Notes under the pieces: generated by a model
Database searches by the model: none
What the model was told of the DNA's origin: nothing
What the model saw: the letters and a program-made list of their open reading frames with translations, nothing else
Assembly (NCBI GenBank): GCA_963422365.1
Contig: OY729426.1
Coordinates: 1,563,380-1,627,379 of the forward strand
From: Nitrospirales bacterium
GTDB lineage: Bacteria > Nitrospirota > Nitrospiria > Nitrospirales > UBA8639
Direction: 5' to 3'
DNA length: 64,000 bases
Shown: positions 24,210 to 55,066 of the stretch, in pieces
How positions within the stretch are numbered: the stretch's first letter is position 1
Layout of the letters: each line of letters starts with the position of its first letter
Made by a program: the position numbers and the translations under genes

Positions 24210-24559
24210 AAGAATTTCCGAATTCTCGGTGACGCCGTTGCATGGACAATGACGATTTCTGCTGAGTACTACCTACGTCCCTGCGCTGGCACGATGACCG
24301 ATTCTCTTTTCGCAGGCCATCTTCGTGTCTGTAAGACCGCCATAACCCATATTATGATTTTAATTATGGATATCAATATCATAATAATAATCTATCACAA
24401 TGGACCTGTCTCCACCATGTTGATTTTCCGGTGAAACATGTCGATCTGCCGGTTTTTGGGGAAAATGGACAAAAGGCCCCAAAATGGCAAATGGCTGCCC
24501 AATCCCCCATGCAGGCTTGCGTTTCACCAAGAGATGAAAAGAGATGAAAGTGGGGCACT

Positions 24560-24731: not shown

Positions 24732-25013
24732 TTATCGCACACTTTTCAATTTCCCTGTCACGAATTTGTGTAATGTGCTCGAGATGAGGGTTTGGTAGGG
24801 CATCCCTTCCTTTGCTGCTCTTTTTTGAATGTTTGCTAAATCGCGTGACGAGATCCGAATATTAATGCGCTTGTCCTTCTGAAGGAAATTGTGCGCGGCC
24901 TCTTCTAATTCGCGCTTCGCTTCTTTGAAGTTGTTGATGCTTGTAAATTCCCCGTGTTCAAAATCCTGAAGGAGCTTCACTTCTTCTCTGTCTAAGTTGA
25001 GAGGGTTTTTCAT
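24732..25013 (-). CDS. brnA: BrnA-type antitoxin (ribbon-helix-helix C-terminus)
   Basis: INIRISSRDLANIQKRAAKEGMPYQTLISSTLHKFVTGKL is the typical BrnA/CopG-like C-terminus. A 4-nt overlap with the upstream toxin gene. Confidence 0.7.
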   Translation of the reverse strand: MKNPLNLDREEVKLLQDFEHGEFTSINNFKEAKRELEEAAHNFLQKDKRINIRISSRDLANIQKRAAKEGMPYQTLISSTLHKFVTGKLKSVR

Positions 25014-25279
25014 TTGAGATACTCCTTTGTCGCTTTCCTGCTCGGGATGATGGTTTTGAGAAATCGTGTTCCTTTCTGCTTCACGTATGGGACTAAGTAC
25101 ACGTACCCTTCCATGTTCAGAACAATGATTCTCTGATTCGGATACTGGGACTCATTGGGATGCCTGATGATATCCAGGACATCGCCGCTCTGAATGTGAA
25201 AGACGACATCTTCAAAACTTACGCCCCGTGTCTTCTCAAGAATCTCATTCTTTTTGTTATCCCAGTCAAATTCATGCAT
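25010..25279 (-). CDS. brnT: BrnT-family (DUF497) ribonuclease toxin
   Basis: MHEFDWDNKKNEILEKTRGVSFEDV... and ...TIIPSRKATKEYLK match the BrnT signature (FxWDxxKxxxNxxKHGVSFEE ... IISARKAT). The track ORF extends to 25405; starts at 25279 or 25291 are preferred. Confidence 0.7.
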   Translation of the reverse strand: MHEFDWDNKKNEILEKTRGVSFEDVVFHIQSGDVLDIIRHPNESQYPNQRIIVLNMEGYVYLVPYVKQKGTRFLKTIIPSRKATKEYLK

Positions 25280-25439
25280 GCATGAAACCATCTCATGTTG
25301 TGTGCCTTTTGTCAACATTTCGCACAATGGAGGGCCGTTGATGGCTCTTGATTGATCCTCCTGAGACCGCGCTTGGACCAAGGAGCGGTTCAGTTCCTGA
25401 AACAAGCAAAGGAAATCGAAAACCTCGACTCCGCCGGGC

Positions 25440-26086: not shown

Positions 26087-26731
26087 CTAGCCTTGCTTAG
26101 CCACCCTTGTCGGACCTTTTAGCTGTTCGGCGACTTGCTGAATGGATTTGTCGAGCCATTGCTCGATGACCGGAGAGAGAAATCCTTTTCCATTGAGTTC
26201 GAAGTCAAGGCCGGCCAACATTTTGGAATACGGTCCCGGGCCATAGAGGCGATTCGAGATGACCAGCACTCTGCCGGGTTTATTGCCTTCTTCAATGAAT
26301 TCGCGCACTTCCTTTACTGCTTTCTTCCGTAACTTAGGCCAATCTTCCCGGACGGTCATGGCCTTGATGGCTTTCAGTTTCGCGCAATGCGGATCCTGTC
26401 GGAGTTTCTCGATATTGGCGTTCATCACCGACAACCAGTGTTGATTGCTTTCGTCGGATCCCGTACCATGAGCAAGAAGAATGACGGTTTCCTCTGAAGG
26501 GTTTTGACTGATCTCCATAATCCGTTCATGCAACACCTGCGCCACGTTGGCCTCTTCTTCGTATCCTCCGAAAGTGGAAAAAATTGCGGCGCTTCGAATC
26601 TGTTGGGGTGGAGTGCGGCCTTGTTTTAATTCATCGAGATACTCGTCGGAAAGCCCAAGGATGTAATCCGTTCTGGGTTTCATGGTATTGATGAGCCCGT
26701 ACATTCTTCCGAACACGATTTTCTTGACACC
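26087..26731 (-). CDS. Continuation of the CbiX-like protein in the same frame after the TGA at 26732..26734
   Basis: Codons directly after the TGA read GVKKIVFGRMYGLI..., completing the expected CbiX motif (L..G..kiv..P/..). A fourth half-domain follows (VILLAHGTGSDESNQHW...). Confidence 0.55.
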   Translation of the reverse strand, partial: GVKKIVFGRMYGLINTMKPRTDYILGLSDEYLDELKQGRTPPQQIRSAAIFSTFGGYEEEANVAQVLHERIMEISQNPSEETVILLAHGTGSDESNQHWLSVMNANIEKLRQDPHCAKLKAIKAMTVREDWPKLRKKAVKEVREFIEEGNKPGRVLVISNRLYGPGPYSKMLAGLDFELNGKGFLSPVIEQWLDKSIQQVAEQLKGPTRVAKQG

Positions 26732-27745
26732 TCATTGTTCAAGACGAGATACGGCATCTTGAATGATAGCCGTATCTCCCATGCCATACGCCAGTTCAAT
26801 TTGATAGCGGCGCGTAAGGGGTGCGATGATCTTTTCCACGGCGTCATTGTAAGGCTGGGTGGAACCGTGAGGCATAATGACGACCCCAATTTCACTTGCA
26901 GATGCCTCTAGATACTGATTCGCGGTTTTCTTGAGCCACAAGAGCAGATTGGGATGAGGAGCGATCTCCGATGGTTGAAAAACCACATTCAGCTTCTGAA
27001 ATCTACGTTGTATCCAGTTCGTCATGGCCATCATGTGATCGAACTTGACCCCAATGAATGCCGGGACCACCAAGGTGCGCCCTTGCATGGCAGCCTGTTC
27101 CGTGATGTGCGTGGTAATCTCTTTATTTTTTCCACGGGCTTGTTCCGCTTCACGGTGATAGTAGATGACGACTTCACTGTCTTGGAACGACTTATATCGT
27201 TGGATATACTGAATCAACGGTGTTAAGTCGTCCTTAATGGCCTGTTCGCTTTTTTCGTCACGGGCCCCGATTCCCACCAAAATGAGTCGTTCGTTTTGAG
27301 TCGATTGGCTGATTTCTTCAACCCGATCGAGAAGGATCTGACCGATCAGGTAGCTCCCTGCCATCGCCGGAGCCCATTCGATACTTAGATCGTCGGCATG
27401 AGTAGGCAAGAGGTCACGGACCGCATGTAGTTGCGGATCGGCAGCGGAAAGAAACAACGGAACAGCGACGACAGATGTCGCGTTCAGTGACCGTAATTGG
27501 TTCAGAGCTTGTTTGATGTAGGCCGTATACGCTGTCTTATGACTTCCATACTTATTGCCGACAAAAGCCAGGGACGCAGGATAATGAAGCTGAAATTCCT
27601 CGACCAGTTTCTTGGTTTCTTGATTCCCCAGAAACCCCCGGTCCGGCGCTATGACCAGAAAGCCGGGATGCGATTGTGCCGAAACGGCGAGGGGACCGAG
27701 ACTTATCATCGTAAGGATAAATAGAGCAGTCCACAGGTGTTTCAT
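26732..27745 (-). CDS. Secreted tandem CbiX/SirB-like (class II chelatase fold) protein, N-terminal part ending at an in-frame TGA
   Basis: Signal peptide MKHLWTALFILTMISLGPLAVSAQS. Repeated CbiX-like half-domains follow (...VVAVPLFLSAADP..., ...LILVGIGARDEKSEQ...LVVPAFIG..., ...GVVIMPHGSTQPYNDAV...). Confidence 0.6.
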   Translation of the reverse strand: MKHLWTALFILTMISLGPLAVSAQSHPGFLVIAPDRGFLGNQETKKLVEEFQLHYPASLAFVGNKYGSHKTAYTAYIKQALNQLRSLNATSVVAVPLFLSAADPQLHAVRDLLPTHADDLSIEWAPAMAGSYLIGQILLDRVEEISQSTQNERLILVGIGARDEKSEQAIKDDLTPLIQYIQRYKSFQDSEVVIYYHREAEQARGKNKEITTHITEQAAMQGRTLVVPAFIGVKFDHMMAMTNWIQRRFQKLNVVFQPSEIAPHPNLLLWLKKTANQYLEASASEIGVVIMPHGSTQPYNDAVEKIIAPLTRRYQIELAYGMGDTAIIQDAVSRLEQ

Positions 27746-27920
27746 TGTAGCCCTCCTTATTTTTGAAATAGCGACTCAATTTCAATTTTGGAGAGAACAT
27801 GGTATCAGGTGGGGGTAATGGTCGTACATGTTCATTCACCTGAAAAAGATGTTCAATGACCGGCCATAGTGAAGAATGCGGCCATACAGAGAACGGGGTG
27901 TCTGCTCAATCGGCGCAGCA

Positions 27921-30900
27921 TCATGGTTGCTCGTTATCACGTTCAATCCAGGCAAGGATTTCCTTGAGATTCGCCTTGGCTTCTTGATAGTCAGGGGCGA
28001 TTTTCAAGACGTCTTGATAATGCGTGATGGCTTCTTGGTATTCCCCGGATTGAGCCAGGCTATTGGCTAAATTGAATCGAGCGCCAAGTGAGGTGGGTTC
28101 GCGCGTCAGTACTTCGCGGAACAACGTTGCCGCGGATTGATAGAGCCCCATTTGATAGCGGGTTAACCCCAAGTTGAACCAAACGGATGTGATCTGGGGC
28201 CATCCGGGATTCAGGCGAATGATGGACTCATAGAAATCCGCCGCCAGCGGATCGTTTCCCTGCCGTGATTGGCTCAAGGCAAGGTCGAACCGCACATTGA
28301 GGTTCTGTGGGTTGATCTGCAGCGCTTTATGCAACAAAGGAATGGCAGCGTCGTATTGTTCTTCGAGAACCAGTTCATGCCCTTTGGCTGTCCAGATCTG
28401 TTCAAGAAAGGTTCGGGTTTGATAATTCGAAGGATGCAGTTCCCATGATTGAGCGTACAGCTCAGTGGCCTCCTCTATGCGATTGTCGGCACGGGTCACG
28501 ATGCCCTCGGTCAGGAGTTGCGCCGCGGTGGAGACCCGAGCTAATCGCTCGAGCATGTCGTCGTTCGAGGACGGGTCGACATGCACGATGTCGGTGAGGG
28601 GACGGAAGTGGGGGAGGAGGCTTGCCAATGTTTCTGCGGCCAGGGTCACCGTATTCAAGGCGTTGAAGGCAAGCGGCGTCGAGTATTCAATGAAGCGGTT
28701 GTCATCGGTATTCAGCGGCGCATCGTGCGTCCAATTCCGGATTGCCGAGCCGTGGCTCATAAACAGGCCTAACAGATTGTAGGGATCGGAATCGAGCTGA
28801 CGCATGCCGCCCAATGGATCGTGGACTGCGTATCGTTCTAGGAAGCGTTGCAAATCAATGTGGAGGGGATCGAGTCCGCCCAAGATCAACAGGTATCCGC
28901 CGTTCAACCACAGGGAAGTCTCCGGAAACACGGATTGGAAGGTACGGACCAGGGTCCGCAAATCGTCCGTACTCAACTGATTGATGGTGATCCATTGGGC
29001 CATGAGGCCGCCAGGAGCCAATTTGGCGCGACATTGCCGATAATGTTCTTGGGTGTACAGACTGCCGACTCCGGTTTGGTAGGGGAAGAACAGTTCTTGT
29101 ACGATGAGGTCGTACGTGTTGCGCGTTAACTTGATAAAGTTGCGTCCGTCTTGTTCGACGACCCGGACCTTGGGATGCTCAAGCACCTGAGCATTCGCCT
29201 GAGCAAAGAAGCGTTTTGCCGCGTCAATGACGCCCAGAGAGATTTCGACCACCGTGACCTGTTCGACGTCCTCCCGTAAGGTCGGTGAAAGGGTAATGCC
29301 TGTCCCTAATCCCACCACCAGCACGCGTTGAGGATCGGGATGCAGGAAAAGCGGCAAATAGCCTTGAATACGCTGAACGCGAACCTCTTTGGCGCCGCTG
29401 CCCCCTTCCTGTCGCAGCCGGCTGGTCAGTAGCGTGCGGGCCAGGGTTTTTCGGTCTTCAAAGACCTCCGTGACTCCCAAGGCATCTTCATGATGATACA
29501 GCACCGCCTGGGAAGTCCCTGCCGCAGCGTGCCGGAATGTAAGGTCTGCGTTCGTTGCAAGCCAGGCAAGCACTCCGAGAAGAAAAAAGAAGGCGAGCCC
29601 CTTGCCCCATAAGTTGGGAATCGTGGACCGGTGTTGCACGGGCTTGCCCCCTGCGGATGACAAGGGAAGGCGCCAGACAAGCAACGCCAGCGTGCAAACC
29701 AGACAGGCTGAGAGCACAAGCCAGGCATGGGTGAGCCCTAAAAAGATAAGAAACCCAAAGGTCGTGAGCACGGCTCCGATCACGGCTCCCCAATTATGCC
29801 ACGCATACAATCGCCCTAGAGGAGAAATAACGCCTGCATGAGGCTGATTGGGTGATGAGACTGTCGCAAGGTCGCAGAGGCTGCAAAAGGCCATGCCCAA
29901 TCCAAACATGGGTACACCGAGAATCGTCACGGTTAATAACGCGTCGCTCAGAAGAAACTGCAGGATCGTCAACTCCTGCGGGCGTAGCTCTTGGAAGATT
30001 CGATCAAACAGAGAAGCAATATTACCCGCAATGGGCACAACCGTGAGTTGAGCGATAAGGGCGATGAAGAGCCCCCATAGGAACAGCCCGGGCTGGTTCT
30101 GCACCTTTCCCCTGAGCCAGAGGTAGATTCCGGAGCCGAATCCCATCATGAGCAGCACCGTGGTTAAGAGGATGCCCTCCGCATAGGCAGTGATATTGAC
30201 AATGAGCCAGACGTACTGCGCCCCGATGATCTCTAACGAAATAATGAGAAACCCAACGACGGCCCCTAGCGTTTGAAGGACGGATAACGACAGCATCCCG
30301 CTCGCGACGTTTGCGAGTTGTGGCTGTCTCTCCAGGGCTAGATGGGCACGGTCGGACGCCCGGTAGCTTCCGACAAAGGCGGCCAAGGCGAGAACAAGGT
30401 TCGTCATCCCGAGTGCCAGGGAGGTGCTCTTCAATCCTAGAGAGGGAATCAAAGCGAGCGAAGCGAGCGCCCCCAATCCTGAGGCCAGGAGGCCGATACA
30501 GTAAAGCAGACCGGGTTTGGTCGTGTGTGAACGAGCAAAGAATTGTGTGAGCAAGGAAGCCAGCACGGGAAAGTTCATCCCGTGCAGGGTGGTGATAGGA
30601 AGAAGAAGTAAACCTACATAAAGACCTCTCACCAAAAGATGCCGGAGCCCTTCGGTTTCCGGTGCCATCAGTACATAGAGGTGGTCTCCCCAGGTCAATA
30701 AAAAAGGAAAGGCTATTCCCAAGAGACCCATCAGGGTTTGAAAGAGGGCGACGAGGCGATAGGTGACGCGTCCGGCAGGTTCGTGCTGGTCTTGAGGCGT
30801 ACCTTTCCATCGAGCGATCACGTAACTGCCGAGGCCCAACCCTGCCATGAACGTGGCTAAGACGATGCCGAAGGCGGTCACCGTCATGCCGATAGACGCG

Positions 30901-31001
30901 GTCAACAGCTTGATCCATACGACCTCATAGGCAATGCCCACGAAAGAATGAAGAGCGTATAACAGCAGAATCAGCGTGCTCATGGAAAAAAGGGCTGGCA
31001 T
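27921..31001 (-). CDS. Fused polytopic membrane / spermidine-synthase-like (PABS fold) / TPR protein, 1026 aa
   Basis: About 500 aa of TM helices, then a Rossmann methyltransferase-like domain (RVLVVGLGTGIT...VTVVEISLGVIDAAKRFF...VVEQDGRNF...YDLIVQELFFP). C-terminal TPR repeats (ALQINPQN..., AIRLNPGW..., VLKIAPDYQEAKANL). Confidence 0.8.
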   Translation of the reverse strand: MPALFSMSTLILLLYALHSFVGIAYEVVWIKLLTASIGMTVTAFGIVLATFMAGLGLGSYVIARWKGTPQDQHEPAGRVTYRLVALFQTLMGLLGIAFPFLLTWGDHLYVLMAPETEGLRHLLVRGLYVGLLLLPITTLHGMNFPVLASLLTQFFARSHTTKPGLLYCIGLLASGLGALASLALIPSLGLKSTSLALGMTNLVLALAAFVGSYRASDRAHLALERQPQLANVASGMLSLSVLQTLGAVVGFLIISLEIIGAQYVWLIVNITAYAEGILLTTVLLMMGFGSGIYLWLRGKVQNQPGLFLWGLFIALIAQLTVVPIAGNIASLFDRIFQELRPQELTILQFLLSDALLTVTILGVPMFGLGMAFCSLCDLATVSSPNQPHAGVISPLGRLYAWHNWGAVIGAVLTTFGFLIFLGLTHAWLVLSACLVCTLALLVWRLPLSSAGGKPVQHRSTIPNLWGKGLAFFFLLGVLAWLATNADLTFRHAAAGTSQAVLYHHEDALGVTEVFEDRKTLARTLLTSRLRQEGGSGAKEVRVQRIQGYLPLFLHPDPQRVLVVGLGTGITLSPTLREDVEQVTVVEISLGVIDAAKRFFAQANAQVLEHPKVRVVEQDGRNFIKLTRNTYDLIVQELFFPYQTGVGSLYTQEHYRQCRAKLAPGGLMAQWITINQLSTDDLRTLVRTFQSVFPETSLWLNGGYLLILGGLDPLHIDLQRFLERYAVHDPLGGMRQLDSDPYNLLGLFMSHGSAIRNWTHDAPLNTDDNRFIEYSTPLAFNALNTVTLAAETLASLLPHFRPLTDIVHVDPSSNDDMLERLARVSTAAQLLTEGIVTRADNRIEEATELYAQSWELHPSNYQTRTFLEQIWTAKGHELVLEEQYDAAIPLLHKALQINPQNLNVRFDLALSQSRQGNDPLAADFYESIIRLNPGWPQITSVWFNLGLTRYQMGLYQSAATLFREVLTREPTSLGARFNLANSLAQSGEYQEAITHYQDVLKIAPDYQEAKANLKEILAWIERDNEQP

Positions 31002-31002
31002 C

Positions 31003-31560
31003 GCGTCATTCCTGTATGTGTTCAGTAATTCGTTGACAAGATTCGTCCATGTATTTGGGAGAGATTCCGGTCATCCCCGGCAGTTTCCTCTCTGTCCTTC
31101 CCGACGGGTGTCATCGGGAATCCAGTCCCGGTGTAGGGCCGCATCTTATGCGGCCAAGAAGAAGAAGGCGCCATGAGATGGCGCCGCTACAACAGAAGGA
31201 GAAGAGAGACGGCCTCTTCGTTCTGTCAACGAATGAGTGAATATTTACAATCCTGAGCAACAACGCGCCTATCCTGCTTGCCCTGAACATAGTGAAGGGA
31301 GCGACAGCGAAGGAAAGGATCTGCTTTTATAGGCAGTTGCTGTTGCAACGACGAGATTCTTCACTTCGTTCAGAATGACAATCATCGTGTGGCCGGGGCC
31401 CCGCATTCTGTTAACGAATGCCTGTCCCCGACGTTTTTAATCGGGGAAGTGAACATTTACAATCCCGACGCTTGTCCCCGATCCCCGATCGAGTCGAGGA
31501 CAAGCTCTGTTCGGGGATCTAATCGGGGATCCATTTTTTGATGAGGACCGTCGGAGACAT
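31003..31560. repeat. About 560-nt cluster of mosaic palindromic repeat modules
   Basis: Modules present: cgtcattcctgtatgtgttcagt (31004..31026, identical to 56764..56786); tcccgacgggtgtcatcggga; tagggccgcatcttatgcggcc (31134..31155); gaaggcgccatgagatggcgccgctacaac; tgtcaacgaatg; gcctgtccccgacgtttttaatcggggaagtgaac (31420..31454). All recur elsewhere in the window in both orientations. Confidence 0.85.
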
Positions 31561-31691
31561 GCTTGCTTTTACTGCGCTTGTCCTCACAAAAGTGACAGGC
31601 TGTAATTTTATCTGACATTATCCGAAAGACAAATTACAAATTCTTGCAAATTAACACATGAAATTGCACGTGGAGATTCGCCAAATATTCA

Positions 31692-31725
31692 GAAAAAAAG
31701 AGAGGCCGACTAGGGTCGGCCTCTC
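31692..31725 (-). terminator. Rho-independent terminator of the TonB-dependent receptor gene
   Basis: On the minus strand: gagaggccgac-ccta-gtcggcctctc followed by tttttttc. It lies about 70 nt after the stop at 31794. Confidence 0.8.
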
Positions 31726-31793
31726 GGACGTGACTCCCGCAACGGGGGGAAGGAGCAGCAGCAGAGAGTTACGACTCGGGGAGCTTTGACATA

Positions 31794-33977
31794 TTAGGGA
31801 AGGTTGATGGAGTGCCACACCGACACCTTGGGATTGATCCCTGCCTCGGGAAGAAATGATAAGTGTCGACGGTAGTTTCGATCCGTCAGGTTATCGACTC
31901 CGAGATTGACTTGGAATCCTTGACCCCAGGATTTCGGAAGGTCGGGGAGCAGCACTTCAACGGGTTTCAAGGTGGCGTAGATATCGAAGAGCACATAGCC
32001 TCCGGTTGGTTGCACAGCAGAGCCTGGGACCACCACGGTTCGGTCCTGGTCGCCCGTAATTTGTGTCCTCCCCCCAATGGTTAATCCCCAGGCAGGGTAT
32101 TGATAGTCAATGCCCAGCACCGCTCGTTTTTGAGGAATGTTTGTCAAGGGCAGTTCATTGGTTTCATCGGTCCCGTGCGACTGACTGTAGTTTCCAGACA
32201 GGGTGACATTCTCAAGCGTGCGCCATTCGAATTCTGCTTCCCACCCCTGAATTAAGGCATTTGTGATATTGACAGGGGTAAAAAAGAATTCCACGGTCCT
32301 TGGTGGAGTGAATATAGTAGCAATTTCAAGGGAAATTAAATTCCTGAGCTTGTTTCTGAAGTAGGCTCCCTTAAAAATGAATTGATCGTTATTGGAAAGC
32401 ACTTTTGGTAATTTCACGCGGAACCCCGCGTCGATGTTCCGGCTACGTTCTGGGCTCAGGTCTGGATTGGCAACAAAAACGCCACCAGGAAAATGAGTGC
32501 CTGCGATAAAGAGGTCACCGAACGTGGGTTGACGGAATCCATGGGCATAGTTCGCTTCAAGGAACAGGAAGTCTGTGACCTGAATCACCGCGCCGACTTT
32601 CGGGTTGAGGACGCCTACGGATTTGGTTGATTCGCCGGATGTTTCATTTCTCCAATGATCCCAGCGAATGGCGGGAATGAGGGTAATGCGATCGAAGAGC
32701 GTGATTTCATCCTGCAGATACAGGGCGAAGACATCAGACTTCGCATCCGGGAAATACAGGCGGCTCCCTGTAGGGGGGAAAATAGGTCCACTCCTCCCAA
32801 AACCTATGGGAAAAGAGGCAGTGCGACTTCCTCCGCTCCTTTGAGTATTCCGGAAAAATTCAGACCCGAAGGTTACAATATGATGGTGCGTGGAAAGATT
32901 GCCGAAATTCATGGAATTTCTGAGATCATACCCAAACGTATCGAAACTGATATCGTCTCTTTTCCGATTATTAACCTGAGTTTCCGTGATATCCAATGTT
33001 GTGAGATAGACAAATCCTTGAAGATTCAAGTACGGATTCGCCGGATTGTTATGCGTGTATCCTAAGCGGTACGTGATTTGATGATTCACTCGGTCGGCGA
33101 TACGAGACGTTGCAGGCACAGTAACCAGACCCGTATCAGGATCAATGTCAGGAACAGCAATAGAGTTGGTGTCGAAGGGGATCTGCGCGGCTTGTCGAGT
33201 GGCTTGAATGGAAAATTTGGCTTCGTCATGCGGAGTCGGTTTCCACACGAGCTTGCTCAAATTGGCTGCGGTATCTTGCGCGGAGTTGGCTAACCGCCCC
33301 AAATCGCCGCCCAGGCGAACGTTTTCTCCGGCCCGAAAGGTCCCGCTGGCCATGACTTCCAATTGGTTGGTGAGGCGAGCCGATAAAGTGGTCGTGGAGA
33401 GGAGTTCTTCATTCTGGTATTGGTAGCCGAATTTTTGCCGCATGCCGTACCGCATGTCCGGAGCCAGATAATCGGATGGGTCCTTGGTCACCATGGCCAC
33501 GACCCCGCCCAAGGCTTGGCTGCCGTACAAGGCCGAGCCCGGTCCGCGAATCACCTCCACCTGTTTGAGTTGATCCATGTCGAAAAAGATGCGACCTTTG
33601 TGCCCAGATTGGAAGTTGAGTCTGACGCCATCCACCAACGTGAGTACTCGCGCACCTGCCAACCCTCGAATATTCGGTCCCTCTCCCATGGTTCGTGGGC
33701 CGTCCCCCGAAGCAACGCCTGGTTCATAGCGCAACACGTCGTCCAGACTTTGCGCTTGACGTTGTTGAAAATAGTCTTGAGTCAGGACGCTGACTTCGCC
33801 TGGCGTGGTCAACGGGTCCCGTTCGGTTTTGGTTGCGCTGACCGTCACTTGCGCAAGTCGTAGCTTGACTTTCTTGGGTTGCGAGTCTTCGGCGTCTTCA
33901 GCATCTTGTCCATAGACCTGTGCTGAGGAAAGCCAGAAGAGCACAAGGACAGCCAAGAGACAAAATTTCTTTGTCAT
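31794..33977 (-). CDS. TonB-dependent outer-membrane receptor
   Basis: Signal peptide and a plug domain (TKTERDPLTTPGEVSVLT...SLDDVLRYEPGV...IRGL...VDGVRLN...IEVIRGPGSALYGSQALGGVV), then a long beta-barrel. 727 aa. Confidence 0.9.
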   Translation of the reverse strand: MTKKFCLLAVLVLFWLSSAQVYGQDAEDAEDSQPKKVKLRLAQVTVSATKTERDPLTTPGEVSVLTQDYFQQRQAQSLDDVLRYEPGVASGDGPRTMGEGPNIRGLAGARVLTLVDGVRLNFQSGHKGRIFFDMDQLKQVEVIRGPGSALYGSQALGGVVAMVTKDPSDYLAPDMRYGMRQKFGYQYQNEELLSTTTLSARLTNQLEVMASGTFRAGENVRLGGDLGRLANSAQDTAANLSKLVWKPTPHDEAKFSIQATRQAAQIPFDTNSIAVPDIDPDTGLVTVPATSRIADRVNHQITYRLGYTHNNPANPYLNLQGFVYLTTLDITETQVNNRKRDDISFDTFGYDLRNSMNFGNLSTHHHIVTFGSEFFRNTQRSGGSRTASFPIGFGRSGPIFPPTGSRLYFPDAKSDVFALYLQDEITLFDRITLIPAIRWDHWRNETSGESTKSVGVLNPKVGAVIQVTDFLFLEANYAHGFRQPTFGDLFIAGTHFPGGVFVANPDLSPERSRNIDAGFRVKLPKVLSNNDQFIFKGAYFRNKLRNLISLEIATIFTPPRTVEFFFTPVNITNALIQGWEAEFEWRTLENVTLSGNYSQSHGTDETNELPLTNIPQKRAVLGIDYQYPAWGLTIGGRTQITGDQDRTVVVPGSAVQPTGGYVLFDIYATLKPVEVLLPDLPKSWGQGFQVNLGVDNLTDRNYRRHLSFLPEAGINPKVSVWHSINLP

Positions 33978-34069
33978 GCCTATCTCCTTTTGTTCCGATT
34001 ATGAGCACGTAGGGTATGGCTTGTGGCCTCCTGCTGCTATCCGGCGAAAGACAAACCGCTACAAATTTT

Positions 34070-34123
34070 GATATGCATACTCATTTTCAATTGACAATTA
34101 TAGCAATAAATAGGGCCTTTCAA
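34070..34123 (-). promoter_or_regulatory. Candidate sigma-70 promoter with an overlapping Fur-box-like site upstream of the TBDR gene
   Basis: Minus strand: TTGAAA (34123..34118), 15 nt, TATAAT (34102..34097). GAAAATGAGTATGCATATC (34088..34070) matches 13 of 19 positions of GATAATGATAATCATTATC. Confidence 0.4.
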
Positions 34124-34234
34124 AATGTTCATTGACCGGAAATTTATGTCGATCCACCGGAAAAAAGCCTTTTGACCTATGATTCAGTCGTAGACAGCTT
34201 ACTTGCGGGTGCCGACAGGCTGGCGCCCGTTGTT

Positions 34235-34711
34235 TTAATATTGCAAAGAAATGGTCAATGATAATCCGCGTGCTGGAAGCTCGAAGGAGGTTTCTTGAAA
34301 GGTAGGAGGGCCCATGACAAGCGGGTTCAGACTCAGACCATAGCCTTCCGACGGCCACATGCCCAAGACTCGATTGAGCCTGGTGTCTCCGTTCTCATCA
34401 TGGTATGCCATGATCGCGTAGGGGCCAGGGTCGAGGTCTGTAAACTCGACAACGGCCGTCCCTTGTGTGGCTTTTGTTGCCTGAACTGTAAAGCATTGTT
34501 CTTCATCAGGAAACGAATCGGGTGAATTGAAAAGAACGACCCGAACGGGTTGGGCGCTGTTATGGATTCCTTCCACCGTGACATGGAGTGTGGCCGCGCT
34601 GCCGGGGGCGCTGGCTAACAGGCTGAACCCAAGGGGCCAGCAAATGATCCACAGCCATTTGATCATGCCGCGGAATTCACAAGAACGGATGCCTGCTTCT
34701 CCGGTCATCAT
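34235..34711 (-). CDS. DUF2141-family secreted protein
   Basis: LHVTVEGIHNSAQPVRVVLFNSPDSFP...GPYAIMAYHDENGDTRLNRVLGMWPSEGYGLS is the characteristic DUF2141 pattern. An ATGA overlap with the exbD stop. Confidence 0.75.
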   Translation of the reverse strand: MMTGEAGIRSCEFRGMIKWLWIICWPLGFSLLASAPGSAATLHVTVEGIHNSAQPVRVVLFNSPDSFPDEEQCFTVQATKATQGTAVVEFTDLDPGPYAIMAYHDENGDTRLNRVLGMWPSEGYGLSLNPLVMGPPTFQETSFELPARGLSLTISLQY

Positions 34712-35082
34712 TTGTGTTCCACGGCGAGGCTGATTTTGGTTAACCCTGCGCCTCTCACGTCATCCACGACGTCAACGAATCGCTCGAACTGAATAACGCG
34801 GTCGGCTCGAACGAGCACCAACGTTTCCGGCGGGAACCGCTGCAATTCACTGAGCACCGCTTCTTGTGGAAGGGGAGTACCATCCAAGAAGATGTCCCCT
34901 GAGGATGTCATCGTGATCGTAATCGGCTCGCTCGGTGCGGCGCTTGTTGCGTTGGCTTGAGCGAGATCCACGGGAATTTGTCCGGTCGAGATAAAGGTCG
35001 CCGTGGTTAAGACAATGACCAGCAAGACCAACATCACGTCGACCAGGGGGATGACGTTGATTTGATTCAGTTCATGATCCAT
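34708..35082 (-). CDS. exbD: Biopolymer transport protein ExbD/TolR
   Basis: INVIPLVDVMLVLLVIVL TM helix and a periplasmic domain. 124 aa. Confidence 0.85.
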   Translation of the reverse strand: MDHELNQINVIPLVDVMLVLLVIVLTTATFISTGQIPVDLAQANATSAAPSEPITITMTSSGDIFLDGTPLPQEAVLSELQRFPPETLVLVRADRVIQFERFVDVVDDVRGAGLTKISLAVEHK

Positions 35083-35497
35083 GGCTAACCTTATACTGCG
35101 TCAGCAACTCCGCCACCCGCCGCCGCAGTGCATTATTCATGACGACACAAGGAATGGCGACCAGCAGGCCGACTGCCGTGGCTTTCAGGGCCAAGCTTAA
35201 CCCGACCATGATCGCGCTCACTTCGATCGTCTTGGTCGTGCCCATGGTATGAAAGGTCACCATGATCCCGAGGACGGTTCCGAGAAGCCCGATATAGGGC
35301 GCATTTGCGGCAACGGTGCCGATCACGACGAGTCGTTTGGTCAATGAAATTTCCAATTGCTGCGAATCGGCAAACTGAGCTAGGGACGCGCGCCGGTAAA
35401 AGATCCAGCGCTCCAGGGCCACGGCAACGGCCCACATGCTCAACAGCAGAAGGAGCCCGATAATTCCATAATCAATGATGGTGTGTAAGGTGGTCAT
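35072..35497 (-). CDS. exbB: MotA/TolQ/ExbB proton-channel protein
   Basis: APYIGLLGTVLGIMVTF...ALKATAVGLLVAIPCVV is the typical ExbB core. 141 aa. Confidence 0.85.
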   Translation of the reverse strand: MTTLHTIIDYGIIGLLLLLSMWAVAVALERWIFYRRASLAQFADSQQLEISLTKRLVVIGTVAANAPYIGLLGTVLGIMVTFHTMGTTKTIEVSAIMVGLSLALKATAVGLLVAIPCVVMNNALRRRVAELLTQYKVSHGS

Positions 35498-35531
35498 GCG
35501 GTCACGTTCTCCTTTGTTTTGCCTTCATGCC

Positions 35532-35993
35532 TCAGGGGGCTTGTGTCGATCGTTGAGTATGGAGTTTCTCGGAAAAGGAAAGGGACCGAAGGCCCTTCAT
35601 GGGAAGGCGGATCTCGCCGAAGTCGGACTGTCCAATAAGCGTGACCTCCTTCGCCAGAGGAAATTCACCGGATTTGCCGTTTAACAGCTTGATGGTCAGA
35701 GCCTGACGACCCTTCATCGGGTGATCGGGTTTAACCTGAATTTTCGCGATCTGTTGAAATTTGACGTTGATCGTGGCGGCTCCGTGTTTGACCGGAATAT
35801 GCGTGATTTCATGTGGGACGAATGTCGTCTCATCAATTTTTTCTTCCCAGTAAAGCCGGGCGTTGGAGACCGACATCTGGACGCCTTCGGCATCGATGGT
35901 TTTAGCCGTAAACGTACTGTTTTGAGCGAGGGCATACGCGGGAAACACGATCGTCAGAGCCAGCAGTAAGGCAAAGAAATTGGCGCGGATCAT
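35532..35993 (-). CDS. Secreted hypothetical protein embedded in the TonB-ExbBD operon
   Basis: Signal peptide MIRANFFALLLALTIVFPAYALA, beta-rich, no recognised motif. The track ORF starts at 36035; the ATG at 35993 is preferred. Confidence 0.6.
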   Translation of the reverse strand: MIRANFFALLLALTIVFPAYALAQNSTFTAKTIDAEGVQMSVSNARLYWEEKIDETTFVPHEITHIPVKHGAATINVKFQQIAKIQVKPDHPMKGRQALTIKLLNGKSGEFPLAKEVTLIGQSDFGEIRLPMKGLRSLSFSEKLHTQRSTQAP

Positions 35994-36031
35994 GATGTAT
36001 TCTCCTTTGTGATGGGATGTCTTCTGAGTAC

Positions 36032-37339
36032 TCAACTCTTCTTTAAATTGAAGGCAATGGGAACGACGAGCCGTTCAATTTCGATGGATTCAGGCGGTTT
36101 CGTTGTTTGGAGAACCTTTTTCAACGTGGCAACGGCTGCCTTATCCAAGATGTCATAGCCTGATGGTTGCGAGATTTTTAAGGCTCGCACGGTTCCGGTC
36201 CTTGATAGAGAAATCGCGATGTGGGTGATCCCGGAATATCCAAGGCGTTTAGCGAGACGCGGGAATTCAAGGGTTTGGGAGATTCTCTCGCGCAGGCGCT
36301 TGCTAAAGGCCAAGAGTTCCGGAGAAAACCCGTTCGTCGAAACAGACCTGGAAATGGTTGTAGGACGGGCTTTTCTCATTTGGCGGGCATAATTGATCGT
36401 TGTCCGTGCCTGCATGACGGGCCTTCCTGATAAGAGTGCGGCAGGTTGACGCGCGGGCCTCGACAAAGTAGGCCTCACCGCTGGTTGAGACCCCCTGCGG
36501 GAGACGTGTTGTGTGTGTTTCATAACTTCCATTGCCGGAGCACGGGTTATCTTCTCGTCATGAGACGATAGGCTATTAACGGATTGCTGCCGGGGTGATG
36601 AGCTGACGGAGGCGACGACTGGTTGAGGCGCGACTACTTGCGAAGGCGTGTGAGTGATGCCGACGAGGCGGGCGGTGGGTTGTGGCGCAACCACTTGTGA
36701 AGCCATGTGGGTGATGCCGGCGGGTTGGGCGATTGGTTGAGAAGAAACCGTGCCGTTTCTGGTCGCAGGCTGAGAAAATGTTTGAGTATGCAGGACCGTC
36801 TTCGGTTGGGCCGTGGGTGTCTGGGTGATGCCGACCGGTCGTGCTGTTGGTTGGGGAGCGACCATGCTGGTTCTGGTTGCAGGCTGGGAAGCCGTTTGCA
36901 TGTGCAGGACCGTCTTCGGTTTGATCGTGGGTGTCTGTGCGACGCTGGTAGGGCGTGGCATGAGTCTCGGAGGCGGCTTCAGGGAAGGTTGGACAGTCGT
37001 CTGGGGAGTTACTGTTTGCCTGGTCTGAGTCTGTGTGCGTGGCTTGGACTGAGTCGGCTCCTTGGGAATTGGTTGGGGTTGCACCTGTTTCGGTTTGATC
37101 GTCGGTGTGGGCGGCGGTTTTTTCATCGTTTGACGATGGGTAGGAGGCGTGCGGGGTTGAGTGAGTTGAGGGGTGAAGAAGGAAACGGTGATAGGATCTC
37201 GCTCCACCCGTTGCGGAACGGGGAGCTTCTGCGAAAGGAGCAGGGCGAGGCCGATCATCATCGTATGCAGGCATACGGATAATCCCCAACTGCTCCAATA
37301 GTCTGGATGCTGTATCGCGCGGAAGACGGAACGTTTCAT
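36032..37339 (-). CDS. tonB: TonB-family energy transducer with an unusually long repetitive Pro/Thr/Gln linker
   Basis: N-terminal TM anchor (WGLSVCLHTMMIGLALLL), about 250 aa of P/T/Q-rich repeats and a C-terminal TonB_C-like domain (...EFPRLAKRLGYSGITHIAISLSRTGTVRALKISQPSGYDILDKAAVATLKK...). Confidence 0.8.
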   Translation of the reverse strand: MKRSVFRAIQHPDYWSSWGLSVCLHTMMIGLALLLSQKLPVPQRVERDPITVSFFTPQLTQPRTPPTHRQTMKKPPPTPTIKPKQVQPQPIPKEPTQSKPRTQTQTRQTVTPQTTVQPSLKPPPRLMPRPTSVAQTPTIKPKTVLHMQTASQPATRTSMVAPQPTARPVGITQTPTAQPKTVLHTQTFSQPATRNGTVSSQPIAQPAGITHMASQVVAPQPTARLVGITHTPSQVVAPQPVVASVSSSPRQQSVNSLSSHDEKITRAPAMEVMKHTQHVSRRGSQPAVRPTLSRPARQPAALLSGRPVMQARTTINYARQMRKARPTTISRSVSTNGFSPELLAFSKRLRERISQTLEFPRLAKRLGYSGITHIAISLSRTGTVRALKISQPSGYDILDKAAVATLKKVLQTTKPPESIEIERLVVPIAFNLKKS

Positions 37340-37534
37340 TCCCGACCCTTGCCGGTTCGGCGGGTTTTACAAATAATTATGAAACCAATTACCAAGATCA
37401 TCTTATTATATACCAGAATAAACGCTCTCGAACATGTCGAACCACCGGATTAACATGTTCGATCGCCGGATATATGGCTCGCTCAGGCCATCAAGCAGGG
37501 GCTCTTCTCTTGTCGTTGCCGGTTTCTTTTGTCA

Positions 37535-37760
37535 TCCCTGTAAATGTTCACTCATTCGTTGACAATTTCCGCTGTCTCCTTCTGTCGTTCCCGACATTTG
37601 TAATCGGGAATCCAGGGTTCTGTTCCAGGCCGGTCCACCCGAATAGATAGACAGTTGTAGCGGCGCCATCTCATGGCGCCTTCTTCTTGGCCGCTAAGGC
37701 ATGTCCCTGCCCGCGAGCGGGGATGCGGCCCTACAGTTCCTTCGCAGTCGCTTCGGACAA
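37535..37760. repeat. Mosaic repeat cluster between tonB and the ABC permease gene
   Basis: cattcgttgaca; ttcccgacatttgtaatcgggaatcc; gttgtagcggcgccatctcatggcgccttcttcttggcc (37654.., reverse complement of the 31156..31193 module); and a split ggccgc...atgcggcccta unit. Confidence 0.8.
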
Positions 37761-37903
37761 GCGCTCGGCTCAGACAGCCCTCGCCGAAGCGTCGGATTCG
37801 GTGCCGGGGCGCAGCCACGCCCAAGGCGGGGACAATGACAAAAATTCTTCGGAGGATTTCAGGATGAGGCTATGTTTCGCTTCATTCGAGATGGGTGGAA
37901 GGT

Positions 37904-39073
37904 TTATGCTCCCCTGAATTTGAGAGCATTGGGAATGTTCGTTCGCATGGCGCGAACCGCCGGGAGCAATCCGCCAAGGGTTGCCATGAAGACGCCGAAG
38001 AGGACGCCCCATAGTGCGATCCGAGGAGTCAGGACAAAACCATAGGCCAATTCCGACATGGTGGCGTAGTTAATGGTTGACAGAGAAGTGAATTGAAGCA
38101 ATGACGCCAGCGCGATGCCCAGACCGGAGCCAAGGAGCCCGATCAAGACCGACTCAAACACAAAGAGGTTGAAAATCCTCCTTCGCGTGAATCCCATCGC
38201 ACGCAGGGTGGCGATCTCGGTGGTGCGATGCGCGACCGCGCCGTACATCGTGATCATGGCGCCGAGGCTTGCCCCCGCGCTGAAGAGCCCAGTCAGCATA
38301 AGCCCCATGGTTCGGATAAAATTCGAGAGACCGCCGGATCGTGATTCATAATAAGCGGCTTCTTTGGTAATGGCTATCTGCAGGCGGGGATCTTGGTCGA
38401 TACGGGATTGGAGCGTGGGAAATAGCGAGGGGTCGCGCGGTCGAAAAATGGCTGAAGAATAATACGTGCGTCCGAACGCGTCCATGAATCGATCGGCATC
38501 CCCCCACATTTCGGATTCAAAGCCGCTTCCGTCCGCTTCAAAGGTTCCGACCACGGTCCAGTTCTGTCTGCCGAACCGAAGCGTTTGGCCCAGATCCGCA
38601 TTTTTAAAGCGTCGAGCGATCTCTTTGCCCGTCACCACTTCATTCGTTCCGGGACGCCACATGCGGCCCTTCACAAGCTTCACTTGAGACCGCACGTGAA
38701 ACGAGTCTGCCGATCCCCCACGGAGGGTCACGTTGCCCGCGGTGTCTGTGCCCCGTTTTACTAAGCTGATGAGCACCACGATTTCAGGCGAGAACAGCGA
38801 GTGGCCGTTCTGTTGAGCAATTTCCGGAAACGTTCGTAAGATGGCCGTCTGTTCCCGATAGAGTCCGCTTCCGATCTCGGAGATGGCTCCTTTCCGAAGG
38901 ACCAAGACATTGTCCATGGAGCCGGTATTGACTAAGGTGTGCTCGACGCCGTGTGCCAACATTAAGACTCCCACAAAGATGAACACGACCAGGCCTACTC
39001 CCATGATCGTCAACAGGTTGGTGGTTCGTCGAGCGAGCAGGTGACGGAAATTGTATGAGAAAAAAATCTGCAT
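37904..39073 (-). CDS. ABC transporter permease, FtsX/MacB-type
   Basis: N-terminal TM, a large periplasmic domain and a C-terminal FtsX 3-TM bundle (EIATLRAMGFTRRRIFNLFVFES). Confidence 0.85.
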   Translation of the reverse strand: MQIFFSYNFRHLLARRTTNLLTIMGVGLVVFIFVGVLMLAHGVEHTLVNTGSMDNVLVLRKGAISEIGSGLYREQTAILRTFPEIAQQNGHSLFSPEIVVLISLVKRGTDTAGNVTLRGGSADSFHVRSQVKLVKGRMWRPGTNEVVTGKEIARRFKNADLGQTLRFGRQNWTVVGTFEADGSGFESEMWGDADRFMDAFGRTYYSSAIFRPRDPSLFPTLQSRIDQDPRLQIAITKEAAYYESRSGGLSNFIRTMGLMLTGLFSAGASLGAMITMYGAVAHRTTEIATLRAMGFTRRRIFNLFVFESVLIGLLGSGLGIALASLLQFTSLSTINYATMSELAYGFVLTPRIALWGVLFGVFMATLGGLLPAVRAMRTNIPNALKFRGA

Positions 39074-39084
39074 GGATCTGAGCC

Positions 39085-39245
39085 GTCAATTCCTATCCAG
39101 AAGACATAAGGGCGGCCCCCCCCGCTAACCTTGTCCCCGACATTTGTTATTGGGGAAACTGCGAGGATGACAATTGGCTGTTTCTGTCACTCCCGATATT
39201 TTTAGTCGGGAATCCAGTCTCCGCATCTCATGCGGCCTAGAAAAG
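39085..39245. repeat. Mosaic repeat units inserted between the two permease genes of one operon
   Basis: cttgtccccgacatttgttattggggaaactgcg; tcactcccgatatttttagtcgggaatccagt; ccgcatctcatgcggcctag (39221..39240). Confidence 0.8.
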
Positions 39246-39295
39246 GTGCGATCCCTCGAACCCTTGGGGGATCGTGCGGTTAGAACGGGCATCAT

Positions 39296-40462
39296 TTATC
39301 CCATATGACGGAGTTCATTCCGAATCCGGCTGCGGAGGCAGAGCACAAACGGGATGACTGCCCCAACCAGCCCAATACTTACACTGAGGACCACCGCCAG
39401 CATCGGCAACTGAGCAGGTAGCTCAAACACCGTGAAAAACCCTCCCAAATTGCTGGTGAGGAACATGCCGAACCATCTGCTCGCGGGATACAGAAGGGCG
39501 ACCCCAAGGATTCCCCCGAAAAGAGAGAGACATACCGATTCGCCGAAAATCAAGAGACTGAGATGAGGAGCCCGAAACCCCAACGTCTTCAAGATCCCGT
39601 ATTCATGATGCCGTTCGCGAACGCTCATTGCCATGGCATTGGCGACAACCAAGATACTGATGCCCAGGATGAGGAAAGACATGATTTCGACTACGCGAAT
39701 GATAGCGCCGGACATGGTCACCATGTTGGCTTGAAACGCCTGTTCTGTTTCCGTTCGGGTTTCCGCTATGGAATTGGTAAAGGCTTGATCGATCTCCGTG
39801 GAGATTTGTGCTGCCTGTTCGGGGTTGGCCATCTGAACCACAAACCAGCCCACGGTCCCTGCGCGAGCCGGATCGTCGAGTCGCCGGCGTTCGTCCACCG
39901 CGCTCCAGTGAAGATACATGCTCCCTTCAGACGCGGTCGGCGTCGTCCTTGTGTAGATTCCTCGTATCGTGAATTCCCAATCGCCCGGATAGAGACTGCC
40001 TTGCAGGCGGACAATGTCACCAATGTCCCAGCCGAGTTTGTCGGCGAGCTCTCGCCCCACGATGCAAGCCCGGCGATCCCGGAGAAAGGCGTTTCGTTGT
40101 GCCGGCGGCAAGTGAATTTCAGGATGGAGCCCTAAATACGAGGTCGACTCTACGGCATATCGAGGAAAAAATGCCTTGCCGTCCTTCCATCGTCCACCAA
40201 ACCAGTTGGCGTAGGAAACCCCGCTCACGCCGGGAATTGCGGCAATGCGTTGTTGATAGGCCACCGGTAGTTGAAAGGAAATGGAAACGGCATGCCGGGT
40301 TCTCAAGCGATCGGGCTGCGATCCCAGCGATCCCGCATACCAGGCCGTGACCGTTGTGCGAAGGAGACCAAAGGCCAGAATGATAATACACATGGTCAGG
40401 ATGGTTAAAGTCGCCCGGAGCGGATGACGGAGCACGTTACGGAAGGTGTAGCGAAGCAACAT
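39296..40462 (-). CDS. ABC transporter permease, FtsX/MacB-type (second copy)
   Basis: Same architecture as above (EYGILKTLGFRAPHLSLLIFGES). Confidence 0.85.
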   Translation of the reverse strand: MLLRYTFRNVLRHPLRATLTILTMCIIILAFGLLRTTVTAWYAGSLGSQPDRLRTRHAVSISFQLPVAYQQRIAAIPGVSGVSYANWFGGRWKDGKAFFPRYAVESTSYLGLHPEIHLPPAQRNAFLRDRRACIVGRELADKLGWDIGDIVRLQGSLYPGDWEFTIRGIYTRTTPTASEGSMYLHWSAVDERRRLDDPARAGTVGWFVVQMANPEQAAQISTEIDQAFTNSIAETRTETEQAFQANMVTMSGAIIRVVEIMSFLILGISILVVANAMAMSVRERHHEYGILKTLGFRAPHLSLLIFGESVCLSLFGGILGVALLYPASRWFGMFLTSNLGGFFTVFELPAQLPMLAVVLSVSIGLVGAVIPFVLCLRSRIRNELRHMG

Positions 40463-41137
40463 TTATTCCAATCTTCCTTTCTGCAGCCTGCAGATAGTGG
40501 CGGCGCGTTGCGCGGCTTCGAGGTCATGGGTGACCAACACGATCGTCTTGCCTTGTTCCGTGTTCAGTCGTTGGAGCAGGGTCATGATCTCGTCTGCGGC
40601 GTCACTGTCCAAGTTGCCCGTCGGCTCATCCGCCAGGAGAATCGCGGGATCCATCACGATCGCTCGCGCAATCGCCACGCGCTGCTCCTGGCCTCCCGAG
40701 AGTTGACGCGGATAATGCGTCATTCGGTCGGCCAATCCCACAAGCCGCAAGGCGGTCGACACGTGTTTCGCGCGTTTCGCACGGGACAGGGACGTCAGCA
40801 GCAACGGCAACTCCACGTTTTCAGCCGCCGTCAGAACCGGAATCAAATTGTAGAACTGGAAGATGAATCCGATTGTTTTGGCCCGCCATTTGGCAAGTTG
40901 ATGGTCGGACAGTTGGTTCACATTGGTCTGATTGATGGACACGTGTCCGCGCACGGGACGGTCGAAGCCGGCCATCAGATTCAAAATGGTGGTTTTCCCC
41001 GACCCGGACGGGCCCAGCAAGGCCACGAAACTCGACGGTGCGATGGCGAGCGTCAGTTGCCTCAGGACGGGTATTTCGATGTCGTCTCGGAAATAGGAAT
41101 GCGAAACTTTTTGAATGTCGATGATGGATGAGGTCAT
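40463..41137 (-). CDS. ABC transporter ATP-binding protein (MacB/LolD-like)
   Basis: Walker A GPSGSGKTT, signature LSGGQEQRVAIARA, Walker B LLADEPTGNLD. Confidence 0.9.
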   Translation of the reverse strand: MTSSIIDIQKVSHSYFRDDIEIPVLRQLTLAIAPSSFVALLGPSGSGKTTILNLMAGFDRPVRGHVSINQTNVNQLSDHQLAKWRAKTIGFIFQFYNLIPVLTAAENVELPLLLTSLSRAKRAKHVSTALRLVGLADRMTHYPRQLSGGQEQRVAIARAIVMDPAILLADEPTGNLDSDAADEIMTLLQRLNTEQGKTIVLVTHDLEAAQRAATICRLQKGRLE

Positions 41138-51841: not shown

Positions 51842-51912
51842 ATCCGTCTAAGAAAAATCTTCCTTGCCGGATTTGCTAAAGCGGATCTCATGGCAGAGTG
51901 GACACGGTGAGG

Positions 51913-55035: not shown

Positions 55036-55066
55036 ACCAATAAATTCCCATGTGTATAGAAAAGCT

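Follow-up and report, generated by a model that had tools for sequence, protein, structure and literature searches.

An accessory TonB-dependent receptor island in Nitrospirales carries an interrupted gene for an exported double-module chelatase-like protein that may handle heme in the periplasm

Introduction

How iron can be drawn from heme without a heme oxygenase or a heme importer has been explained in a few anaerobes, through HmuS in Bacteroides and IhtB in Porphyromonas gingivalis. IhtB (also FetB; PDB 9B86) is a CbiK-like, heme-binding putative dechelatase that is encoded together with the TonB-dependent receptor IhtA (PMC12094164, PMC13065792), and for which extracytoplasmic removal of iron from heme has been proposed (PMC12094164). 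It is a single two-domain lipoprotein, 37% identical to CbiK, and its operon also encodes an ABC importer, IhtCDE. A second exported member of the class II chelatases, CbiK(P) of Desulfovibrio vulgaris (PDB 2XVX/2XVZ), is periplasmic and binds heme. The same two-half-domain fold occurs in SirB and the long CbiX proteins, of which Bacillus subtilis SirB (PDB 5ZT7) is a cytoplasmic biosynthetic enzyme. On the uptake side, classical heme systems of the ShuA/HemR/PhuR type add three components to their receptor and TonB-ExbB-ExbD energiser: a binding protein in the periplasm, an ABC importer of the FecCD type and an enzyme that degrades heme in the cytoplasm. Here we analyse a locus that combines a receptor of this type with an exported CbiX-like protein of four half-domains (referred to as CbiX4). 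It lies on a 64,000-nucleotide stretch (referred to as the window; contig OY729426.1, positions 1,563,380 to 1,627,379) of the genome of a Nitrospirales bacterium, which consists of one contig of 2.50 Mb and is 98.6% complete.

The locus may constitute an accessory heme- or iron-acquisition island in which CbiX4 handles heme in the periplasm, possibly removing its iron, a reading for which the arguments on either side seem to us about balanced. In the window itself, the CbiX4 gene is broken by an in-frame TGA codon.

Results

The receptor gene (31794–33977, minus strand) encodes a 727-aa TonB-dependent receptor with a Plug domain (PF07715, 98 bits) and a barrel (PF00593, 183 bits). This protein scored 425.7 bits against TIGR01785, the family of TonB-dependent heme/hemoglobin receptors (cut-off 316.85), and 103 bits against the B12 receptor model, with weak BtuB-family matches to its plug domain. 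Its best relatives of solved structure are ShuA (3fhh; E = 3e-49) and then other heme receptors. In the phmmer alignment to 3fhh_A, His126 of the receptor aligns with ShuA His86, and the His of a GTHF stretch is matched to that of the ShuA SKHF stretch. GTHF is flanked by FRQP and NPDL, which resemble the FRAP and NPNL boxes. The heme ligands of ShuA are His86 in the plug and, between these two boxes, His420, which is presumably the His of SKHF. The receptor thereby shares with ShuA, HemR and PhuR a score above the family cut-off, both axial His residues and the two boxes. Among the heme, cobalamin and siderophore clades that the original prediction had left as options, it is thus the heme clade to which the receptor belongs as a ShuA/HemR-type protein, and heme transport is predicted for it. 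Because the receptor falls in this clade with a score above the cut-off, has ShuA as its closest solved relative and conserves both His residues, a metallated tetrapyrrole is its likely cargo.

A cobalamin riboswitch, which had been suggested as a possibility for the receptor leader, was not found: Rfam returned no RF00174 match in the whole window at the gathering threshold, nor any at E ≤ 5 in 30900–34400, and the scan yielded only two chance matches to small RNAs. As a positive comparison, two RF00174 matches were obtained at the B12 locus of the same genome. This locus, located downstream of the window at a distance of about 150 kb, encodes behind the two riboswitches a BtuFCD-like importer together with another TonB-dependent receptor. 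These matches scored 95 and 83 bits, at 4728–4903 and 8195–8357 of locus L076 (G000:C1:1778727-1778902 and 1782194-1782356).

The gene for CbiX4 (26087–27745, minus strand; PF01903, 24.7 bits against a cut-off of 22) specifies an N-terminal signal peptide, as read from the sequence. AlphaFold2 (AF2) modelling of the read-through protein from a 39-sequence alignment yielded four alpha/beta half-domains (pLDDT 83.6, pTM 0.82). In Foldseek, the best match to this model was SirB (E = 1e-5, TM normalised to the target ~0.63), followed by CbiK(P) (E = 6e-4, TM ~0.58), CbiK (1e-3), HemH/CpfC (1.5e-3) and P. gingivalis FetB/IhtB. According to the model, CbiX4 is thus a double module of two class II chelatase folds. 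Unlike FetB, it has no sequence homology to CbiK that is detectable with phmmer, which returned no match among all PDB chains at E ≤ 10; a profile search found CfbA (E = 0.007), SirB (E = 0.06–0.1) and nothing else. Searching a protein library with module 2 recovered 632 representative proteins, comprising single-module (~300 aa) as well as double-module (~560 aa) forms.

At the level of individual residues, only half-domains 3 and 4 keep a His-Gly motif (H293 and H426, both invariant); in half-domains 1 and 2 its place is taken by DRG and GAxD. The metal site of SirB, formed by His10 and His76, is not conserved in module 1 of CbiX4 and half conserved in module 2. The His pair within one half-domain that marks a competent class II chelatase (His10/His76 in SirB, His9/His75 in CfbA) therefore occurs in none of the four. 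CbiK(P), by comparison, is reported to keep the catalytic residues of a cobaltochelatase (Lobo 2008; Romao 2011). Nor does CbiX4 sit in the cytoplasmic setting of tetrapyrrole biosynthesis, as it has a signal peptide and its gene neighbours those for TonB, the receptor and a pump. A biosynthetic chelatase role is disfavoured. Between half-domains 3 and 4, copies from freshwater Nitrospira (P0035, P0052 and P0064) carry a His/Asp-rich loop, such as GGHGGHDHH, at the place where the marine clade has EYLDELKQGR. This freshwater loop resembles the His-rich region of archaeal CfbA.

The linkage between CbiX4 and receptors was examined via a profile scan of species-representative genomes, which yielded 60 CbiX4 loci, 55 of them with sufficient flanking sequence. 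These 60 loci belong to Nitrospirales, Nitrospira, Manganitrophaceae, Nitrospinota, several Gammaproteobacteria and single metagenome-assembled genomes (MAGs) of Sphingomonadales, Rhodanobacter and Bacteroidota. A TonB-dependent receptor was encoded within 5 kb of CbiX4 in 41 of the 55 loci, and on the same strand in 39; for comparison, the whole 2.5-Mb window genome has five such receptors. The receptor-linked loci span Nitrospirota, Gammaproteobacteria, one Sphingomonadales MAG and one Rhodanobacter MAG. The original prediction had proposed that receptor, CbiX-like and SpeE-like genes would stay together in relatives. This proved true of CbiX4 far beyond the close relatives, but of the SpeE-like gene in the close marine clade only. 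In P0286, a metagenomic protein of 828 aa, a CbiX4-like N-terminus (residues ~28–545) leads into the final third of a Plug domain; a barrel then begins, and the protein is truncated after its start. By its sequence, P0286 may represent a chelatase-receptor fusion.

Partner receptors from four independent lineages (L054, L059, L062 and L071) scored above the cut-offs of heme/hemoglobin/transferrin families, two others (L011 and L036) fell slightly below, and others were unclassified. Among 17 aligned receptors, only that of the window and that of L062 keep both heme-ligand His residues. Because the partner receptors belong to several classes, heme specificity of CbiX4 does not appear to follow from the linkage. 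Of the proposal that a metallated tetrapyrrole or another chelate enters through the receptor and is processed by the chelatase-like protein, the heme-type receptor thus stands, but a specificity of CbiX4 for heme finds no support in this mixture of partners. In many Nitrospira loci (L011, 18201–19735; L029–L039, L063, L064 and L069), a second secreted CbiX of a single module (312 aa; PF01903, 53 bits) has a PepSY_TM-like membrane protein as its partner just past the receptor, a further recurrent combination of chelatase fold and receptor.

The cluster in the window extends further upstream than the eight genes first described, up to position 42999, and all of the added genes lie on the minus strand. 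It opens with an AraC-family regulator (42409–42999; PF12833 HTH_18, 73 bits), followed by a MacA/HlyD-like periplasmic adaptor or membrane fusion protein (41144–42412; TIGR01730 RND_mfp, 166 bits against a cut-off of 95; MacA, 96 bits) and an ABC ATPase of the LolD/MacB/DevA type (40463–41137; best NCBIfam models LolD, FtsE, DarD, DevA and MacB, each below its cut-off). Two FtsX-type, MacB/LolCE-like permeases complete the module (39296–40462 and 37904–39073; weak LolCE/ADOP matches). The same arrangement recurs in Nitrospira loci of about 55% identity (L011, L013, L014 and others), which read AraC, adaptor, ATPase, FtsX, FtsX, TonB and CbiX4, with the receptor 0.1–2.7 kb further on; in L011, L013 and L014 the AraC-family gene occupies the same position, and the tblastn-matched Nitrospira genes at the permease position carry MacB_PCD and FtsX Pfam matches. 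Because this gene order is common to the window and distant Nitrospira, pump, TonB, CbiX4 and receptor form the conserved core of the island in Nitrospirales. The original prediction had remarked on the lack of a cognate inner-membrane ABC importer. An importer of the heme type is indeed missing, but an ABC system is present, and it is probably of the MacB (exporter) type. No gene for an outer-membrane factor was noticed in the locus, although no search was aimed at such factors.

Profile searches of the genome revealed neither a PF01126 heme oxygenase nor HemS/ChuS, and the only FecCD-type importer in the genome belongs to the riboswitch-controlled B12 system; the additional components of classical ShuA/HemR/PhuR systems were thus not found in this genome. 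FeoB models gave weak matches to GTPase domains only, with no clear FeoB in the genome. No pathway by which imported heme would enter or pass the cytoplasm can therefore be recognised. Because heme oxygenase, HemS and a heme-type ABC importer are lacking in the genome, extraction of iron in the periplasm is favoured. An ABC importer that depends on a substrate-binding protein (SBP) and has a fused double permease is encoded at 50774–54601; it is Fbp-like and a candidate for iron(III) import.

In the window, CbiX4 is encoded by two open reading frames (ORFs) of 337 and 209 aa that share one frame and are separated by a single TGA codon (26732–26734). The CbiX-like gene of the original prediction is accordingly chelatase-like and exported, but it is not one uninterrupted frame. 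Among the 120 CbiX4 homologues listed of the 359 found, nearly all measure about 550–580 aa, with a typical length of ~557 aa. In DNA alignments with ten relatives, the codon aligned to the TGA was CGA or CGC (Arg) in nine and GAG (Glu) in one gammaproteobacterium; some homologues from the protein library have Gln at or beside this position. From the Arg codons of the relatives it follows that the window allele is, judged by sequence, a C-to-T (CGA-to-TGA) nonsense change. An error of sequencing or assembly, with the gene in fact intact, is possible. Incorporation of selenocysteine was ruled out: the relatives have Arg or Glu and no Cys at this position, the fold downstream of the TGA has z = 0.56 and thus forms no stable hairpin, and SelA (PF03841) was not found in the 98.6%-complete genome. 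Outside the window, aragorn called a tRNA-SeC (anticodon TCA; G000:C1:813319-813402); in the absence of SelA, this call is spurious or marks what is left of a selenocysteine system that the genome has lost.

The TGA codon lies within half-domain 3, and truncation costs the protein its second module, the sole one in which the conserved His-Gly motifs are retained. Because of this loss, the CbiX4 step is probably defunct in this genome.

Within the genus, the island is accessory. A heme-type receptor occurs in six of 21 genomes, the window genome included, and an intact CbiX4 in three of 14 other genomes. Two further genomes have only a C-terminal stretch of CbiX4 with a TAA inside (G071:C3:15430-15879 and G177:C1:344877-345326; 44% identical to CbiX4 residues 401–550) and no heme-type receptor; these stretches derive from the same island, either as remnants or as a fragment that has diverged. 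Of the nine other genomes covered by both searches, two have receptor and intact CbiX4 together and seven have neither, two of the seven keeping the C-terminal stretch. The island may be decaying in the window genome, and the nonsense codon fits such a loss. In the closest relative (L001/L016, 1383–3728), the receptor gene has two tandem paralogues, of which one is broken up into three or four frames and looks like a decaying copy.

Two control signals of the receptor gene that were part of the original prediction were confirmed. A Fur-box-like site ahead of the gene (34070–34088) matches 14 of 19 consensus positions, which is the joint best score in the window, and five relatives have a Fur-like site of 13–14/19 at an equal distance from the receptor start codon. 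Downstream of the gene, a strong intrinsic terminator on the minus strand (31700–31725) consists of an 11-bp stem with eight G-C pairs, followed by TTTTTTT. A Fur-family gene is located at 54547–55113 in the window. The island is probably Fur- or iron-regulated, the site ahead of the receptor gene being its putative operator. Because its spacer measures 15 nt, the promoter proposed earlier for the receptor was missed in a scan for canonical sigma-70 promoters. A 20–23-nt motif, AATTTGTA..TTTGTCTTTCG, is located in the receptor leader and again past the terminator. Because it occurs only twice in the genome and in none of the corresponding regions of ten relatives, it was dropped as evidence of co-regulation. 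Overlapping Fur-box-like sites (13–14/19, in several registers) also cluster at 24350–24398, in an AT-rich spacer near small ORFs.

The eight same-strand genes of the original prediction were all found as described, on the minus strand. Besides the receptor and CbiX4 they include the energiser, with tonB (36032–37339, 435 aa; PF03544 TonB_C, 45.5 bits), exbB of the short exbB2 type (35072–35497; TIGR02805, 158 bits against a cut-off of 135) and exbD (34708–35082; PF02472, 90.5 bits). The linker of TonB is long and rich in Pro, Thr and Gln, and contains a 114-nt tandem duplication (36708–36935, 79% identity). Between tonB and exbB, a gene for a secreted 153-aa protein (35532–35993, minus strand) encodes the invariant motifs FVPHE and SDFG. 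This protein has no Pfam or NCBIfam match; its 63 homologues include few with a source name, all of them from Nitrospirales or Nitrospira. The AF2 model is all-beta and of moderate confidence (pLDDT 71.5), and its best Foldseek match in the PDB, an accessory protein of a type VI secretion system (T6SS), was not significant (E = 0.017). Because its gene is also found immediately upstream of receptor genes in loci that are arranged differently (L040, L042 and L049), the 153-aa protein is a real component of the locus. The gene for a secreted DUF2141 protein (34235–34711, minus strand; PF09912, 96 bits) follows exbD in close relatives too, and a literature search yielded no function for this domain.

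The remaining gene of the row encodes a 1026-aa protein that combines a polytopic membrane region with Spermine_synth and TPR domains (27921–31001, minus strand; PF01564, 74.6 bits and above its cut-off, plus TPR families) and is treated in the Discussion. It is separated from the receptor gene by 790 bp, versus 138–240 bp in several relatives, the extra length consisting of intergenic repeat elements. Short mosaic repeat elements fill the spacers at 31001–31794, 37340–37903 and 39074–39295, and include a perfect 35-nt inverted pair (31159–31193 / 37654–37688) as well as a 43-nt hairpin unit that is present five times. A PIN/TRAM-domain gene (22825–23844), which relatives also keep downstream of CbiX4, sits between CbiX4 and the next conserved gene, as does a gene for a BrnT-like toxin (25010–25405). 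The named relatives are marine Nitrospirales MAGs, some of them from sponges and corals.

Discussion

In the locus described here, a TonB-ExbB-ExbD energiser and two small secreted proteins are encoded beside a ShuA/HemR-type receptor. The energiser would power this receptor, and heme would reach the periplasm, where CbiX4 would bind it and possibly strip its iron as a reverse chelatase. The freed iron would enter by a separate importer, for which the Fbp-like ABC system 13 kb upstream is a candidate, and the co-encoded MacAB-like pump would expel the porphyrin. An inner-membrane heme importer and a heme oxygenase would thereby not be needed. Gene content, folds, motifs and linkages are what we observed, and every chemical step in this sequence is our deduction from them. 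That CbiX4, the receptor and the Nitrospirales MacAB-like pump together make up a complete periplasmic pathway of heme-iron extraction in aerobic chemolithoautotrophs we consider unlikely. In such a pathway, heme would go no further than the periplasm, its iron would be the only part to pass the inner membrane, and the porphyrin would be exported again.

The part given to the pump has a described precedent. E. coli MacAB-TolC effluxes protoporphyrin IX (PMC4263509). Resembling that system, a MacA-like adaptor, an ABC ATPase and putative FtsX-type permeases are encoded in the window, here with an uptake receptor. The same likeness extends to Pseudomonas aeruginosa PvdRT-OpmQ, a MacAB-type system for the recycling or efflux of ligands in the periplasm. 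Unlike in MacAB, permease and ATPase are separate genes in the window and the two permeases differ from each other, as in LolCDE.

A number of observations weigh against the handling of heme by CbiX4. The metal-binding His pair of SirB, CbiX and CbiK is incomplete in all half-domains, with a residue other than His at the second position. Heme binding or dechelation by members of the CbiX4 family is suggested by analogy, as is the role of the pump, and the MacAB-like link is confined to Nitrospirales. The putative chelatase-receptor fusion P0286 is a single truncated metagenomic protein and might be an assembly artefact. With CbiX4 broken, nothing in this genome need be functional. Moreover, many partner receptors are not of the heme type and lack the heme-ligand His residues, at least three classes being represented, and many CbiX4 loci contain genes for cupredoxin-like proteins (PF13473), multicopper oxidases or PepSY_TM proteins; such neighbours argue for the redox handling of metals rather than for heme.

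The last two points also speak for a different role, in which CbiX4 serves as a general periplasmic chaperone or acceptor of metals (Fe, Cu, Ni or Co) for any chelate imported by a receptor, without being specific for tetrapyrroles, and the heme-type receptor is merely its partner in the window's clade. Most of the partner receptors, from at least three classes, have no heme-ligand His, and the cupredoxin-like, multicopper-oxidase and PepSY_TM neighbours are recurrent. In addition, CbiX4 carries several invariant Met, His, Asp and Glu residues, freshwater Nitrospira homologues have the His/Asp-rich loop, and the structures of SirB, the protein with the best-matching fold, are by their titles complexes with Co, Ni and Fe. 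This loop is, however, missing from the window's clade. Furthermore, the known exported members of the fold, CbiK(P) and FetB, bind metalloporphyrins (PMC13065792), and heme-family receptors partner CbiX4 in four independent lineages. We regard a general metal chaperone as the main alternative, though a less likely one.

The position of the 1026-aa SpeE/TPR protein might suggest that it forms one functional unit with CbiX4 and the receptor, for example a membrane-anchored complex that processes the imported chelate. The order receptor, SpeE/TPR, CbiX4 is found with short gaps in ten out of ten close relatives, and SpeE/TPR and CbiX4 are 175 bp apart in the window. These ten relatives are, however, 72–85% identical over the N-terminal 337 aa of CbiX4, and the order may be inherited rather than selected, while the SpeE/TPR gene is not beside CbiX4 in any of about 45 more distant loci. 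Other Nitrospirota genomes also contain similar paralogues of about 1000 aa at scattered positions. In alignments to 2b2c and 3o4f, the SpeE-like domain reads GLGTG for GGGDG and QELFFP for DSxDP (DSSDP and DCTDP in the two structures). With the motifs for decarboxylated S-adenosylmethionine (dcSAM) and the catalytic aspartate lost, it is by sequence not a canonical aminopropyltransferase. Because these motifs are lost and the linkage is limited to close relatives, the SpeE/TPR protein is most likely a passenger unrelated to uptake, and a joint functional unit seems improbable.

Import of a corrinoid (cobalamin or a precursor), with the chelatase-like protein handling cobalt or corrinoids, would agree with CbiX and CbiK being cobaltochelatase families and with the weak BtuB-family matches to the plug, but deserves hardly any credence against a receptor scoring 426 bits for heme versus 103 bits for B12, a window without cobalamin riboswitches at the gathering threshold (and at E ≤ 5 in 30900–34400) and a separate BtuB/BtuFCD-like system with two such riboswitches elsewhere in the genome.

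Coming back to the periplasmic handling of heme, the closest described counterpart of CbiX4 is the group of IhtB/FetB and CbiK(P). CbiX4 is likewise exported and encoded near genes for outer-membrane uptake, and would likewise bind heme. Like Iht, the window locus places an exported class II chelatase fold beside a TonB-dependent receptor, and FetB is among the fold matches of CbiX4. The two differ in that FetB is a single-module lipoprotein and CbiX4 a soluble-type secreted double module, and in that the ABC importer IhtCDE of the Iht operon has its counterpart in a MacB-like pump. CbiK(P), in turn, is a single module and not linked to a receptor in the manner of CbiX4. An exported chelatase-fold partner of heme receptors is thus known, and what is new is the double-module architecture and its AraC/MacAB-like/TonB context in Nitrospirales.

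The window genome mainly documents the decay of this module, with its CbiX4 gene interrupted and the island accessory. Nitrite oxidisers and their marine symbiotic relatives play a part in the nitrogen cycle and frequently face iron limitation. The wider family, which is conserved, exported, uncharacterised and encoded next to TonB-dependent receptors, offers a candidate step for periplasmic iron extraction or metal transfer.

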